Program-made: the position numbers and the translations under genes
Origin: an uncultured Chloroflexia bacterium
GTDB taxonomy: Bacteria > Chloroflexota > Chloroflexia > QHBQ01 > JADMIH01
Length of the DNA: 64,000 nt
Direction of reading: 5' to 3'
Assembly: GCA_963797095.1 (NCBI GenBank)
Contig: CAWCNY010000005.1
Coordinates: 544,001-608,000, forward strand
Shown here: positions 57,405-64,000 of the stretch, one piece after another
How the letters are laid out: each line of letters begins with the position of its first letter
Position numbering within the stretch: position 1 is the stretch's first letter
The notes under the pieces: generated by a model
What the model was told of the DNA's origin: nothing
What the model saw: only the letters and a program-made list of their open reading frames with translations
Databases searched by the model: none

Positions 57405-57989
57405 TTATTTGGGTATGTCTAGTGCGATTTCTCGGGCGCAGTGGGGGCATTTCCAGATGTCTTGTTCTTTTGGCTCCAGTTTGTGGCCGCAGGGGCAGGC
57501 CCATCCTCTGAGGCGGGCGGGATTGCCGTATGCTAGACCGTAGTCGGGGATGTCGCGTGTTACCACCGAACCTGCGCCTATCATGGCCCAGCGGCCTATG
57601 GTTACTCCTGGTACTATTATCGACCCGGCACCAATGGATGCGCCTTCCTTTACTAATACGTGGCCTAGCTCCCAGTCGTCATCGCTCTTGAGGGTGCCAT
57701 CGGGGTTGATGGCCCTGGGAAGGCGGTCGTTGGTGAATATCACATGGGGGCCGACGAAGACGCCGCTTTCAAGCTCTACACCATGATAGACGCTTGAGCG
57801 GTTCTGAATCTTAACATTGTTACCGATGTGCACTCCGAAGTCTATGTAAACACCTTTGCCTAGAATGCAATTGCGCCCGATCACTGCGCCCTCACGTACC
57901 TGGGCTTCGTGCCAAACGCGCGTACCCTCGCCCAGTGTGGCTTTGGGTGATACGTCGGCTGTGGGATGGATGTAGATGTTTGGGTTCAT
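57405..57989 (-). CDS. Hexapeptide N-acetyltransferase (WbpD-like)
   Basis: IHPTADV, VKIQN, FTND, GASIGA, GNPAR, C-terminal CPCG..CPHC. Confidence 0.93.
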
Positions 57990-57994
57990 GGTGG

Positions 57995-58045
57995 GTGGCG
58001 AGTGGCGAGTGGCGAGTGGCGAGTGGCGAGTGGCGAGTGGCGAGT
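57995..58045. repeat. Heptamer tandem repeat (GTGGCGA) x7
   Basis: Read directly from the sequence. Confidence 0.97.
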
Positions 58046-58063
58046 ATTAGCAGTAGTGGTTGT

Positions 58064-59128
58064 TCAGGCGTTGGATAGTAGGTTGGCTATGGCCTGGGAT
58101 GCCTGGCCGTCGCCGTAGAGGTTTGGCGGGGTGTTGGCCGGGCGGGGTTTGGATAGGGCGGCAAGGATTTGGGCGGGGTTGGTGCCTGCCAGGGTATTCC
58201 AGCCGCACTCAACCGTTTCTACCCATTCGGTTTCTTCGCGCAGGGTAATACATGGCACACCTAACCAAAGAGCTTCTTTTTGGACGCCGCCAGAATCGGT
58301 CAGGATGGCGCTCGCGTGCCTTTCGAGGGCCAGCATCTCAAGATAGGAGACAGGCTCGGTGGCGATGATGTTGTCGCCTGGTACAATGCCTGCTTCCTGA
58401 ATAGCTTTGCGGGTGCGGGGGTGGATCGGAAAGACGACGGGCTGCCCGGCCATGCTCAGGGCAGATATGATAGCCGCAAGGTTAGCTGGATCATCGGTGT
58501 TTGAAGCACGATGCACGGTGGCTAGTAAATAGCCATTGCTTTGGACACCTAGCCTTGATAGGACCGCATCGGCATCGCTTCCTTTTTGCTCTACGGCCCA
58601 CAGGATGGCATCGAACATAACGTCACCAACGATATAGACGCCTTCGCGTATACCCTCTTGCTCAAGATTGTAGGCAGCTACACCTGTGGGGCAGAATAGG
58701 AGGGAGGAGAGCCTGTCGGCCAGCACGCGGTTGATCTCTTCGGGCATAGCGCGGTTGAAAGAGCGCAGGCCAGCCTCGACATGGGCAACGGGTATGGATA
58801 GCTTGGCGGCGGCAAGCGCCCCGGCCAGGGTGGAGTTGGTGTCGCCATAGATGAGGACGCAATCGGGCTTTTGGTCGAGGAGGACCGACTCAATGCCAGT
58901 TAGCATGGCGGCGGTCTGCGATGCGTTGGTGCCTGAGCCGACACCCAGGTTGTAGTCGGGAGGGCGCAGACCCAGTTCATCGAAGAAGACGGCAGACATG
59001 GCCCGATCATAGTGCTGGCCTGTGTGAAGGGATATTTCAGTGATGCCTGCGCGCTGGAGGGCGCGGCTTACAGGTGCGGCTTTTATAAATTGTGGACGAG
59101 CACCTACTACGGAAAGAATCTTCTTCAT
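58064..59128 (-). CDS. wecB: Non-hydrolysing UDP-HexNAc 2-epimerase (WbpI/WecB-like)
   Basis: VGARPQFIK, HTGQHYD, GDTNST, HVEAGLRS, TDSGGVQKEA, LYGDG. Confidence 0.92.
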   Translation of the reverse strand: MKKILSVVGARPQFIKAAPVSRALQRAGITEISLHTGQHYDRAMSAVFFDELGLRPPDYNLGVGSGTNASQTAAMLTGIESVLLDQKPDCVLIYGDTNSTLAGALAAAKLSIPVAHVEAGLRSFNRAMPEEINRVLADRLSSLLFCPTGVAAYNLEQEGIREGVYIVGDVMFDAILWAVEQKGSDADAVLSRLGVQSNGYLLATVHRASNTDDPANLAAIISALSMAGQPVVFPIHPRTRKAIQEAGIVPGDNIIATEPVSYLEMLALERHASAILTDSGGVQKEALWLGVPCITLREETEWVETVECGWNTLAGTNPAQILAALSKPRPANTPPNLYGDGQASQAIANLLSNA

Positions 59129-61877: not shown

Positions 61878-62055
61878 TTTGCTGTACCTCGGTCTTTATG
61901 GTTTTGGGGATTAGTTGGCAGCCTTTTCCCTAGTATAAAACTTTCGGTCAGACTGTGTGAGCAGGGCTTTCAGGGGAGCCAGCCATGACCCTGAGGGTCA
62001 CCAGCGTGTAATGAAAATGAGGGGCTGGCGCGCTCCGTGCTGTGCTATATTCCAG

Positions 62056-62292
62056 ACACTCTGAGCGCAACAAGGTCGGGATACGTTGGTGCATGCAGCT
62101 TTGCTGCCGCGAGCCCGCAGGAGGAGTCTGACCCTGGTGTCCTAAGGCACCGTTGATTGTTGCTCCCGACAGCTACTACTCGGCGTATCCGGGTAACTGT
62201 AACAAGTTTGATAAGCCTGGTAACCCTGGTAACCTGAAGGGAAGCACGTAGAGCAGAATTCTACTAATAGGTGGACACCATGCTCAGTTGTC
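62056..62292 (+). ncRNA. Putative bridge/seek-RNA-like structured RNA, copy 1
   Basis: Lies in the IS110 left non-coding end after TGcTATATT; closing stem GACACTCTGAGC...GCTCAGTTGTC; blockwise homology to 63706-63906. Confidence 0.6.
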
Positions 62293-62346
62293 TTGCAAGC
62301 AACTAAACAGACAAGTAATCAGGCAACCGGACAGGAGGTATCTGCT

Positions 62347-63597
62347 ATGCAAGTGGTTTATGAGCGCTGTTGTGGATTGGACATACACAAGAAGACAGTA
62401 GTGGCTTGTCTTATCACGCCGAACTCTAATAAACAGGAACTGCCTTTGCCTCATAAGGAAGTCAGGAGTTTCGGTACCATGACTAATGACCTGCTGCAGT
62501 TGTCAGACTGGCTCATGGCCAACAGTGTGACAGCAGTGGCCATGGAATTGACCGGAGTTTATTGGAAACCGATCTACAACCTATTGGAGGGAGAGTTTGA
62601 ACTGCTCTTGGTCAATGCCCAGCACATCAAAGCAGTGCTTGGTCGCAAGACCGATGTACGCGATTGTGAGTGGATCGCCGACTTGCTCAGACACGGCCTG
62701 CTGAGAGGCAGTTTCGTACCTGATCGCCCCCAACGGGAGTTAAGGGAACTAACACGATACCGCACGCAATTGATAAGAGAACGCTCTACTGAGGTCGACC
62801 GGTTGCAGAAGACGTTGGAGGGAGCCAATATCAAGCTGGCAAGTGTTGCCACCGACATCATGGGAGTATCGGGGAGGCAGATCCTTTCGGCGTTGCTGGA
62901 CGGACAGGTCGATGAGCGAGCGATGGCGGAACTTGCCAGGGGGCGGATGAGGGAGAAGATACCCCAACTGCAAGAGGCACTCCGAGGATGCTTTGGTGCC
63001 CATCAACGCTTCATGCTAGCTCACCAGTTAGCCTTGATCGACGTGCTAGACGCATCGATTGAGGGGTTGAGCCGCGAGATAGAAGAGAGGGTGAGCCCTT
63101 TTCAGTTGGCGTTGGACTTGTTGGTGACGATCAGGGGAGTGGGGCAGCGCACAGCGGAGGTGATCGTCTCTGAGGTAGGAGTTGATATGAGCCGATTTCC
63201 CACATCTCGGCATCTGGCCTCGTGGGCAGGGATGTGTCCTGGCAACAACGAGAGTGCAGGTAAACGCAAGAGCGGTAGGACCCGTAAAGCTAATCCGTGG
63301 CTGAGAACGGCATTAGTGGAGGCCGCTCAAGCAGCTGCTCACTGCAAACAGAGTTACCTGTCAGCACAATACCACCGGATAGCCAGGCGTGGAGGTGCCA
63401 ACAAAGCTGCAGTAGCTGTAGGTCATACTATTCTCGTTATTGCTTATGAGATGCTGACGCATCAAACCACCTACAATGAGTTGGGAGGAAACTACTTCCA
63501 TGAGCGAGACCGCAAGGCCAAAGAGCGGCGTCTGATCCATAGCCTGGAGCGACTTGGATACAAGGTTTCACTTGAGCCGGTTGCTTCGGCTGCATGA
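62347..63597 (+). CDS. IS110-family DEDD recombinase/transposase
   Basis: GLDIHK, MELTG, GRKTDVRD (D-E-D-D), GMCPGNNESAGK serine motif; AGGAGGT RBS before ATG 62347. Confidence 0.95.
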   Translation: MQVVYERCCGLDIHKKTVVACLITPNSNKQELPLPHKEVRSFGTMTNDLLQLSDWLMANSVTAVAMELTGVYWKPIYNLLEGEFELLLVNAQHIKAVLGRKTDVRDCEWIADLLRHGLLRGSFVPDRPQRELRELTRYRTQLIRERSTEVDRLQKTLEGANIKLASVATDIMGVSGRQILSALLDGQVDERAMAELARGRMREKIPQLQEALRGCFGAHQRFMLAHQLALIDVLDASIEGLSREIEERVSPFQLALDLLVTIRGVGQRTAEVIVSEVGVDMSRFPTSRHLASWAGMCPGNNESAGKRKSGRTRKANPWLRTALVEAAQAAAHCKQSYLSAQYHRIARRGGANKAAVAVGHTILVIAYEMLTHQTTYNELGGNYFHERDRKAKERRLIHSLERLGYKVSLEPVASAA

Positions 63598-63705
63598 ATT
63601 CCAGTTATTTTCAGAGGAGAGGAGTTTGTCATGTCGCTGGGGACACCAGCGTATGAATGAAAATGGTTGAGCCACCCCTTGACCATGTGCTATGCTACTC
63701 GTTAG

Positions 63706-63906
63706 GCACTCTGAGCGCAACAAGGTCGGGCTTGGTCTGGTGCTGCGAGCCCGTAAGAGCAGTTTGACCTGGGTGTCCCGAGGCACCACGTATTGTTGCT
63801 CCCATGCCTGTCCAGGCATCACCACTGTTGTGGGTCGGTGATTGGGTTGGGGATGGGAAGCACGCACAGCAGAATCTGTGATCAGGTGGACACCTCGCTC
63901 AGTGTC
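63706..63906 (+). ncRNA. Putative bridge/seek-RNA-like structured RNA, copy 2
   Basis: Same scaffold blocks as copy 1 with different loop sequences; preceded by TTGAGC-N18-TATGCT. Confidence 0.55.
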
Positions 63907-63939
63907 ATGGTAAGTGTCATTTGTCTTAGCAATCTGAAC

Positions 63940-63997
63940 GAACGCGAACGCGAACGCGAACGCGAACGCGAACGCGAACGCGAACGCGAACGCGAAC
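63940..63997. repeat. Hexamer tandem repeat (GAACGC) x9
   Basis: Read directly from the sequence. Confidence 0.97.
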
Positions 63998-64000
63998 AGG

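Follow-up and report, generated by a model that had tools for sequence, protein, structure and literature searches.

The end of the analysed window, a 64,000-nucleotide stretch of DNA from an uncultured Chloroflexia bacterium, very probably carries two different insertion sequences of the IS110 family arranged head to tail, each with its own bridge-RNA gene. In both elements the RNA gene lies in a long left end, the DEDD recombinase gene comes next, and the right end is very short, made up of ATTTTC, five bases and the two-base core AG. As the original prediction had noticed, the non-coding DNA on the two sides of the first recombinase gene (61968-62292 and 63609-63906) is homologous and co-oriented; a full-length alignment recovered the blocks in the same order with a mean column identity of 73%, and the variable segments quoted between the shared blocks were found on direct reading of the sequence. 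The sequence past position 64000 revealed a complete second IS110 recombinase gene, with 79.6% amino acid identity to the first, that begins 19 bases beyond the window end, and the downstream module therefore belongs to a second element, E2, as its left end, in agreement with the tandem arrangement that the prediction had preferred. The final ACAGG of the window, which had been offered as a sign of that arrangement, does not equal the ACAGGAGG ahead of the first gene; the sequence continues as ACAGGGCATAGGAGGTG, and the ATG of the second gene lies at the window-equivalent position 64019.

Both recombinases show the domain composition of the IS110 family, an N-terminal RuvC-like DEDD domain and a C-terminal Tnp domain, with matches above the curated cut-offs to PF01548 (E 1.8e-29 and 8.4e-30) and PF02371 (E 5.2e-24 and 2.3e-24). 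In an alignment with the IS621 transposase (8wt6), residues E67, D103, D106 and S303 fall opposite their counterparts, and together with D12 they are invariant in the four local proteins. In the catalytic DEDD set of IS621 the acidic residues are Asp/Glu/Asp/Asp. The catalytic serine of IS621 is S241 (PMC11208158). The mode of insertion is likewise of the IS110 type, being site-specific and lacking long terminal inverted repeats; copies of the elements E4, E5/E6 and E1 have 4-7 bases of left flank in common, and AG stands at both junctions.

The upstream element, E1, extends from core to core over 61977-63619 (all window coordinates refer to the plus strand) and comprises a left end with the RNA gene, the recombinase gene and a short right end. 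Its left target is AGGGG plus core AG (61972-61978), with the core position taken from the family register; TCAGGGGAG is also found ahead of a second, truncated copy of the E1 left part at C5:63754 on the minus strand of the same contig, and the two copies are identical from TCAGGGGAG onward and differ before it. Within the left end lies a hairpin, GACCC-TGA-GGGTC (61987-61999), that covaries in the family: left-end columns 61-71, 62-70 and 63-69 are paired at 0.82-0.90 against 0.38-0.51 expected (z 6.1-7.6). It is followed by TGAAAAT (62012-62018) within the conserved block AATGAAAATG, the reverse complement of the right-end ATTTTCA; TGAAAA recurs in 71 of the 86 upstream regions compared, and 59 of 66 right ends contain TTTTC. 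The predicted bridge-RNA gene occupies 62052-62293, with a closing helix P1, a target module (P2/P2a) and a donor module (P3/P4) whose P4 carries a long insertion. Within it, the family rule places the left-target guide CAGGAGG, core AG and then UC at 62118-62128, which fits the flank CAGGGG-AG-CC only with one additional guide base, and the left-donor guide AGAGC plus core AG at 62250-62256. The recombinase gene (62347-63597) encodes 416 amino acids with the DEDD_Tnp_IS110 and Transposase_20 domains, and the right end (63607-63619) reads ATTTTC, donor-left AGAGG and core AG, one mismatch away from the left-donor guide. This mismatch fits a chimeric origin of E1, which from about 62585 onward is identical to a copy on another contig, C8, that has a different left end.

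Only the start of E2 lies in the window (63623-64000); the element extends to the window-equivalent position 65309 (C5:609309). Its left target, AGAGG plus core AG (63618-63624), overlaps the end of E1, and AGGAG occurs twice at this junction. The left end contains the segment CACCAGCGTAT (63644-63654), which is matched in sense by the donor-loop 5' strand of the RNA, CACCACGUAU (63784-63793). The predicted bridge-RNA gene, for which the centroid fold recovers P1-P4, is placed at 63702-63907. Its right-target guide position GCUUGGUCU (63730-63738) predicts the right target AG-ACCAAGC, and the present right flank, AG-CAGCAG, does not correspond to it. The left-target guide UAAGAGC, core AG and then UU (63754-63764) ends in the first two bases of the E2 left end, and the left-donor guide ACAGC plus core AG (63866-63872) equals the E2 right end ATTTTC-ACAGC-AG (C5:609297-609309). 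The recombinase gene, with its own Shine-Dalgarno sequence, starts 112 bases after the RNA and runs beyond the window from C5:608019 to 609287, encoding 422 amino acids. An AGCAG repeat behind E2 was considered as the true right end of E1 and rejected, as the family motif ATTTTC is missing there.

The junction between an E1-type right end and E2 is present on two contigs of this eight-contig draft genome, C5 and C8, and the two E2 copies are identical. How the pair arose can be read in two ways. The tandem may have formed not by RNA-guided insertion but through exchange between IS copies (homologous recombination or duplication), or it may be an assembly join across repeats, to which a draft of this kind is open. 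The chimeric E1 lends weight to recombination, as its switch to C8 identity at about 62585 falls in a conserved part of the gene and exactly where the truncated E1 copy ends, so that the present arrangement on C5 owes something to homologous recombination. Such an exchange, however, accounts for the arrival of the block at this locus and leaves the original contact of E2 with an E1-type right end unexplained. The E2 junction has the core dinucleotide, the five-base spacing to CATG that is usual in the family, and a left-target guide match of four of five bases plus the core and the two bases that follow. A 360-nt metagenome contig, possibly derived from the very sample used for the genome assembly, spans the junction exactly, which argues against an assembly join, and the same pattern recurs in another genome (locus L056), where the left-target guide of the downstream element also fits the upstream right end. 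We therefore consider an origin without guided insertion quite unlikely. The two E2 copies probably represent one insertion event that was duplicated later, and the targeting of E2 therefore rests on a single junction. Among the 20 relatives searched, the left flank was found only at 64-71% identity, within the neighbouring gene, and the right flank was not found, so the pre-insertion site could not be rebuilt. The tally takes in one unpublished genome, on which none of the conclusions depends.

The RNA scaffold was examined by comparison with relatives, as the original prediction had suggested. At least 591 relatives were confirmed among the 597 matches listed, and 80 loci were kept for analysis. 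A covariance model, R1, the seed of which included both window RNAs, matches the window exactly twice, at 62052-62288 (81.4 bits, E 2e-17) and at 63702-63903 (104.9 bits, E 4.9e-23), both hits being seed members, as well as 79 of the 80 related loci, which come from many phyla. Thirty-six external loci were outside the seed, and 35 of these were matched; the exception, L034, has no upstream DNA. The scaffold, judged by these matches, is no rarity and is common to a large IS110 clade. At the gathering score, a search of Rfam returned no family for either RNA, with best E-values of 0.1-0.27 inside the recombinase genes and not in the RNAs.

Three of the four stems proposed earlier were supported by the relatives, and these stems covary. 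The closing helix P1, CACTCTGAGC/GCTCAGTG, is more stable with its own partner than with those of other RNAs (-20.3 versus -12.0 kcal/mol; own partner better in 45 of 46), and in both P3 (GGTGTCC/GGACACC) and P4 (TGCTCCC/GGGAAGCA) all seven pairs have changed on both sides. The fourth stem, GGTCGGG/TyTGACC, was retained only as a helix of 4-5 bp, P2, formed by GGTC(G)/(U)GACC. Compensatory changes were observed in 20 of 22 modelled pairs of the structure-fitted alignment, in which 91.4% of cells are paired against 72.9% when shuffled and 31-50% when slid, figures inflated by the fit of the alignment to the model's own structure. On an unfitted MAFFT alignment, the pairing of P2, P2a and P4 is 88-94%, and P2 and P3 also emerge from RNAalifold. 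Single-sequence folding was not significant alone (z -1.29 for both RNAs), and the support for the predicted RNA structure is comparative. Minimum-energy folds prefer a local hairpin, GGUGUCC-N3-GGCACC, to P3; covariation favours the long-range P3, and the local hairpin was rejected as the real fold. A further pairing, in which the right-target-guide region and the donor-loop 5' strand would extend the conserved UGGUGC/GCACCA, was also rejected, as E2 and locus L033 misfit. A shared block previously read as an extended -10 may act as a promoter from which the RNA would be transcribed: a simple sigma-70 scan found nothing on the plus strand, and some Bacillota relatives carry TATAAT at the aligned place. 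A search of RNA sequencing runs listed none that contains this stretch, which speaks neither for nor against transcription.

The original prediction had viewed the two modules as a natural pair that separates the scaffold from programmable positions, and this proved correct when loop bases were compared with insertion-site flanks by permuting junctions among non-redundant elements. The left-donor guide (LDG), which forms the 3' loop strand in the donor module, agrees with the element's five final bases and the core at an identity of 0.89-0.96 (z 6.9-11.5, n=58), with seven of seven bases matching in 44 of the 58 elements. In the target module, the right-target guide (RTG) lies on the 5' strand, ending at model column 145-146, and the left-target guide (LTG) on the 3' strand, beginning at column 163. 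LTG identity to the left flank is 0.62-0.77 (z 6.9-9.6, n=62), and the two bases after its core agree with those of the left end at an identity of 0.65-0.70 (z 6.3-7.1, n=62); 20 of the 62 elements match at nine of nine positions and a further 13 at eight of nine. The RTG is antisense to the right flank (z 4.4), with contiguous runs of 4-7 in 18 of the 65 elements listed, taking the best of five offsets. The core is identical in both loops in 64 of 77 cases. The variable loops are, on these correspondences, guides, and the two modules accordingly correspond to bridge-RNA genes, with a covarying structure that has been kept and loops that follow the target and the ends of the element to which they belong. 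A right-donor guide (RDG), which would be antisense to the first bases of the left end, was sought next to the donor hairpin as antiparallel diagonals between the donor-loop 5' strand and the core plus these bases. No diagonal exceeded a z of 3, whether or not G-U pairs were allowed, and a free scan gave z of at most 3.4 in scattered columns; the donor-loop 5' strand instead matches, in sense, a left-end segment farther in. A donor-side handshake, between the bases after the LDG and the right flank, reached a z of only 0.4-1.1. In the genome, a 12-mer built from the guides of E5 has two exact sites against about 0.7 expected by our own estimate, too few to count as support, and the predicted targets of E2, E4 and the E1'-type gave no exact site among the first 12 matches listed per pattern.

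It could be argued that the conserved left end is instead a DNA-level or mRNA-leader element, such as a promoter, a set of recombinase sites or a translational control, as the left-end hairpin and the TGAAAAT inverted repeat do resemble protein- or DNA-level signals. We regard this as very unlikely, since compensatory changes occur in four helices and P1, and the loop strands track flanking DNA that lies outside the element; the same logic has been shown experimentally for IS621 and for ISEc21/ISEc11 (PMC11208160, PMC11187229). That a single recombinase works with two guide RNAs of different programming, encoded on either side of its gene, fits the window when taken alone, where two homologous modules flank the gene, and is now close to impossible: the complete second gene, which the original prediction had itself named as decisive, refutes it, the second module and second gene recur as a unit on C8, the second donor guide is identical to the right end that follows the second gene and not to the one that follows the first, and the RNA lies upstream of its own recombinase gene in 79 of the 80 related loci.

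Taken as two guided elements, the pair suggests the following mechanism. The RNA is closed by the long helix P1 and contains two modules, in each of which an outer helix and an inner hairpin enclose an internal loop. The RTG, as the 5' strand of the target loop, is antisense to the core and right flank, and the LTG, as its 3' strand, is a sense copy of the left flank, the core and the first two bases of the element; in the donor module, the LDG on the 3' strand is a sense copy of the element's five final bases plus the core. Through these guide strands the recombinase-RNA complex may base-pair with the target and with the ends that are joined in the excised circle, and recombination would occur at the shared core, by analogy with IS621 and the IS1111/IS110 seekRNAs. 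E2 presumably sits behind the upstream element because its LTG AGAGC-AG fits the right end AGAGG-AG at four of five bases plus the core; its RTG misfits the right flank, so that the insertion, at the end of a relative, would be half matched. The window copy was probably reshaped afterwards by homologous recombination within the recombinase gene, an order of events that we infer.

These elements share with IS621 (Durrant 2024, PMC11208160; Hiraizumi 2024, PMC11208158) a DEDD + Tnp recombinase, placement of the RNA gene within the long left end, ahead of the recombinase gene, two internal-loop modules matching target or donor with the target module first, a core dinucleotide read in both loops, and two bases beyond the core that match the other DNA partner in the handshake manner. 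In contrast to IS621, the protein is distant (a partial phmmer match, E 2.7e-9) and longer (416 versus 326 amino acids), the core is AG and not CT, the handshake-like bases follow the sense guide and not the antisense guide, a long helix closes the whole RNA, and no RDG adjoining the core was found by the scans above. The IS621/IS110-type arrangement, with LTG and LDG on the 5' loop strands, is absent: LTG (50-58) precedes RTG (77-80) in IS621, whereas RTG precedes LTG here. This order, with the top-strand complement 5' of the bottom-strand match, is that of the IS1111-type seekRNAs of ISEc11, ISPa11 and ISKpn4 (Siddiquee 2024, PMC11187229). A short inverted repeat near the ends may be another likeness; TGAAAAT/ATTTTCA has only 7 bp (the IS1111 range is 7-17 bp) and is asymmetric, lying 5 bases from the core on the right and about 35 on the left. 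[quoted passage not shown] ISEc21 (PMC11187229) and CazIS110-1 (10.1101/2025.10.25.684509) also have an upstream non-coding region, and the guide order of ISEc21 is opposite to that found here. A structured RNA gene in a long non-coding end, with loops that covary with flanks and ends, agrees with both bridge and seek RNAs. Three features are mildly unusual, namely an IS1111-type guide order in an RNA upstream of the gene, the failure of the scans above to find an RDG, and one donor-loop strand that reads as a sense copy of a left-end segment.

Tandem IS110 modules and bridge or seek RNAs are already published, and a guide RNA of its own for each element is ordinary for the family. Tandem complete IS110 modules (n = 437) have been described in a preprint (Hu et al., 2026; 10.64898/2026.08.14.744561), and those loci resemble ours in their tandem modules, non-coding repeats beside the gene and one-sided donor-end matches. 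Unlike the duplicates described there, our two modules are different elements, with 79.6% amino acid identity and different guides, and the target guide of the downstream element fits the end of the upstream one. The clade and its guide order may already be covered by published covariance models and guide tables; a literature search found no paper on a circularly permuted IS110 bridge RNA.

For annotation, the end of the window would thus be described as two mobile elements and not as one gene with two regulators. The value for the field is modest: the pair and about 80 relatives offer an alignment-based read-out of the programmable scaffold bases (five bases, core and two; five bases and core; four to seven antisense bases), and E1/E2 would be a case from nature in which an IS110 targets the end of a second one. 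If uncatalogued, the guide order and the sense-copy donor strand would bear on the diversification of IS110/IS1111 bridge RNAs and on donor recognition, and could widen the scaffolds usable in programmable recombination. A bolder and rather doubtful reading is that the clade represents a third bridge-RNA architecture, with an upstream RNA, IS1111-like strand-permuted loops, no RDG, sense-copy donor strands and programmed stacking. One donor strand would then copy the right end plus core and the other a left-end segment beyond the covarying DNA hairpin, so that the RNA might pair twice with the donor bottom strand around an extruded hairpin and produce an RNA-DNA four-way junction for the RuvC-like enzyme. 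Mimicry of right ends would in that case make stacking a programmed outcome and not an accident; left targets resembling right ends do occur, as 10 of 70 flanks have TTTC where a right end would carry it, and E2 and L056 both sit on the end of a relative. As a minor observation, a GAACGC microsatellite (63936-63997) lies between the E2 RNA gene and the ribosome-binding site, and one metagenome contig is shorter by 25 bases at this place.

Pairwise alignment over the stretch 61968-64000 revealed that the non-coding modules on either side of the recombinase gene are homologous and co-oriented, with a mean column identity of 73%, and that their conserved blocks occur in the order originally described. 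The recombinase gene of the first element, E1 (61977..63619), extends from 62347 to 63597 and encodes 416 aa from a conserved ATG, with the Pfam domains DEDD_Tnp_IS110 and Transposase_20; its product shows distant similarity to two solved transposases, those of IS621 (E 2.7e-9) and ISCro4 (E 2.8e-7), in an alignment that includes the Glu, two Asp and Ser positions. Continuing the sequence past the window end (G000:C5:544001-608000; locus L002) revealed a second complete IS110 gene, which starts at an ATG at C5:608019 (window-equivalent 64019) and encodes 422 aa with the same two domains and 79.6% identity to the E1 recombinase. This identifies the downstream module as the left end of another element, E2, which begins at 63623. 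The original prediction had offered either one recombinase with two guides or a tandem of IS110 elements; the former is refuted by the second gene and the latter is correct, both elements being ordinary members of the IS110 family with predicted bridge RNAs.

A combined tblastn and profile search found ten left ends of the E1/E2 type in the 6.0-Mb draft. In addition to those of E1 and E2 on contig C5, these comprise a second E2 on contig C8, identical to the first and again directly behind an E1-type gene (E1'), which differs from E1 in its left end and its first ~75 codons; a truncated E1 (L092, C5:63119-63754, minus strand) retaining the left end and 87 codons; two identical copies of E4 on C6; E5/E6 (L090, C1:484546-486017, and L091, C5:324948-326254, both on the minus strand), with frameshifted recombinase genes; and a fragment, E7. 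A 15-base tandem repeat, read as WLRCW in one frame, lies in the E5/E6 genes and differs in length between the copies; the RNA genes of both elements are intact, as are the guides, which match the DNA on either side. The C5 and C8 loci are unrelated before window position ~62585; from there to the end of E2, over about 2750 bases, they are identical except for two substitutions and a difference in the length of one repeat. The switch point lies in a conserved part of the recombinase gene and coincides with the end of the truncated E1 copy. As identity is confined to the sequence beyond ~62585, E1 in the window is a recombinant, with an E1 left part joined to an E1'-type right part, and the two E2 copies probably represent one insertion that was duplicated afterwards. 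A 360-nt soil-metagenome contig (L103 1787-2146) spans the E1/E2 junction (2019-2025) without difference, and the metagenome run may be the source sample of the genome.

The RNA scaffold is widespread. In a scan of one genome per species, at least 591 relatives were confirmed among the 597 stretches listed, and 80 loci from these listed relatives were kept, belonging to Chloroflexota, Bacillota, Acidobacteriota, Actinomycetota, Planctomycetota and others. A profile seeded with 23 left ends, 5 of them local and 18 external, had matches in 83 of 84 upstream regions, the seeds among these matching by construction. A covariance model built from 49 RNAs (alignment A3) gave 89 matches overall: the 64-kb window has exactly two, at 62052-62288 and at 63702-63903, and 79 of the 80 external loci are matched; outside the seed, 35 of 36 external loci matched, the exception (L034) being a locus without upstream DNA.

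Helices P2 and P3 were found by RNAalifold on a plain MAFFT alignment, with compensatory changes in 10 of 11 pairs. Counted on the unfitted MAFFT alignment, the four-helix structure paired at 92% in P2, 94% in P2a and 88% in P4, and at just 49% in P3, because the register of P3 drifts there. On the model-fitted alignment A4, which leans towards the structure, 91.4% of 1776 cells pair, versus 72.9% in 500 shuffles (0/500 as high) and 31-50% with partners slid by 1-3 columns; the stems do covary among homologues, 20 of 22 pairs having changed on both sides in this fitted alignment. As the closing helix of the RNA, P1, does not align by column, it was judged by duplex energy: 5' and 3' segments of the same element gave -20.3 kcal/mol, versus -12.0 kcal/mol with partners from other elements, and the own partner was better in 45 of 46 (Wilcoxon p 2e-12). 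A blind column-by-column covariation scan recovered the same helices, together with pairing between the two donor-module strands (columns 189-237, z 8.7) and, at LE columns 61-71 of the family alignment, a hairpin of the left-end DNA that covaries. Single-sequence folding of both RNAs was unremarkable (z -1.29 each), and the promoter is a putative one. The left-end hairpin lies at 61987-61999 and 63633-63647, 7-20 bases inside the left end, and covaries across the family although the RNA is presumed to start only downstream of it; the hairpin could function at the DNA level or within an extended transcript begun at the joined ends.

To relate the RNA loops to DNA, junctions anchored at CATG in the left end and at ATTTTC in the right end were each compared with every RNA column, with junctions permuted among non-redundant elements as a control; the resulting statistics rest on these chosen anchors and a profile alignment. 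The seven bases (five plus two) directly 3' of GGAAGCACG(C/U) equal the element's own right-end five bases plus core (the shared dinucleotide) following ATTTTC, at an identity of 0.89-0.96 (z 6.9-11.5, n=58), with 7/7 bases matching in 44 of the 58 elements and six in 5. GAGCCCG is directly followed by five bases plus two that reproduce the flank adjoining the left end together with the core (identity 0.62-0.77, z 6.9-9.6, n=62), and the next two bases equal the first two of the element (identity 0.65-0.70, z 6.3-7.1); all nine match in 20/62 and eight in 13/62, the low scorers including elements with a 4-base rather than 5-base spacer. That this flank lies outside the element is indicated by copies of E4, E5/E6 and E1, which diverge 4-7 bases left of the core. 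Finally, the stretch just 5' of (U)UGGUGC is antisense to the core plus right flank (z 4.4), with contiguous runs of 4-7 in 18 of the 65 rows listed (best of five offsets, a list without separate control) and a 7/7 match in E5/E6. By sequence comparison, these segments are thus the predicted left-donor guide (LDG), left-target guide (LTG) with a handshake-like extension, and right-target guide (RTG), respectively. The core is AG in 59/77, AA in 7 and AC in 1, and is identical in both loops in 64/77. The segments originally noted as differing between the two modules are exactly these guide positions (E1: LTG 62118-62128 and LDG 62250-62256; E2: RTG 63730-63738, LTG 63754-63764 and LDG 63866-63872), and the target-loop bases follow the insertion-site flanks. 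Exact unoccupied 12-base targets predicted from the E5 guides (TACAA-AG-TCGAG) occur at C1:486493 and C2:259474 (+); the two copies have similar neighbouring bases, possibly a dispersed repeat used as target.

An antisense guide to the first left-end bases (RDG) was not found in the E1/E2-clade RNAs. The donor-loop 5' strand is a sense copy of the left-end segment following the covarying hairpin, as in E2, where CACCACGUAU (63784-63793) copies CACCAGCGTAT (63644-63654). Column tests reached z 8.2, and own donor-loop/left-end pairs beat other pairs in 61/72 (p 1.4e-10); in E1 the likeness is limited to the conserved CACC. Hypothetically, both donor-loop strands would pair with the donor bottom strand, on either side of an extruded hairpin.

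In IS621, the bridge RNA is described as running stem, LTG (50-58), stem-loop, RTG (77-80) and handshake bases, where the LTG base-pairs to the bottom strand, the RTG to the top strand (PMC11208160, PMC11208158). Relative to that description, the E1/E2 clade has the same kinds of guide, but its target module has the antisense guide first and the sense guide second, and in the donor loop, too, the sense guide occupies the 3' strand. The clade thus joins an IS110 layout with an IS1111 guide order; it also carries an inverted repeat of 7 bp, TGAAAAT at the left end and ATTTTCA at the right. Durrant et al. report bridge-RNA models for 85.7% of the IS110s in ISfinder, with six diverse structures shown (PMC11208160), and this arrangement may already be on record there; how the guides are ordered in the clade, and how it recognises its donor, merit a closer look.

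A 2026 preprint (10.64898/2026.08.14.744561) describes complete IS110 modules in tandem (n = 437), as well as repeat units adjoining the gene and matches to donor ends on one side only. Here the junction reads ATTTTC AGAGG AG AGG AG TTTGT CATG and, with the usual five bases from core to CATG, the E2 core falls on the second AG, which makes AGAGG the left target of E2. The E2 LTG, AGAGC-AG-UU, matches this junction at 4 of 5 bases plus the core and the next two, and its AGAGC-AG is identical to E1's own LDG, a fit that would account for the stacking of the two elements. The E2 RTG predicts AG-ACCAAGC and the actual right flank is AG-CAGCAG, so that the guide match, at this single junction, is limited to the left half. 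In the sole other tandem among the 80 loci, L056, the upstream IS110 gene is a fragment of 305 residues, and here as well the LTG of the downstream element (CCAAAA-AA) fits the right end of the upstream one (TTTTC-CAAAG-AA). TTTC occurs at the position of the right-end ATTTTC in 10/70 left flanks (two of the ten being near-duplicates), where we estimate ~0.5 by chance. A search of 20 relatives did not recover the empty, pre-insertion site. A subclade of four loci (L020, L039, L022 and L032) has core AA and right target TGAC; in L039 the left flank (ATTTTC-GTACC-AA) repeats the right end of the element itself exactly, no recombinase gene was detected in the 1.5 kb upstream, and the target resembles a right end.

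AGGAG is doubled at the E1/E2 junction (63615-63624), and (CAG)n(AGCAG)4 follows the E2 right end at L002:3204-3235 (C5:609303-609334) and C8:95660-95689, with CAG counts differing between the two copies. CazIS110-1 is reported to yield tandem repeats as by-products (preprint 10.1101/2025.10.25.684509), and the right-end short repeats may belong with this published IS110 phenomenon. Each repeat unit behind E2 ends in the core AG, and AGAGCAG equals the E1 donor guide and the E2 target guide. Between the E2 RNA gene and the ribosome-binding site, GAACGC occurs ~10 times (63936-63997), in a length that varies, since one metagenome contig is without 25 bases of it; E4 has a GATCGGATCA-type repeat at the equivalent place. 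An open frame at 57966-58118 with a repeated WRVASGE motif is another short tandem repeat, and the genome seems rich in microsatellite-like repeats.
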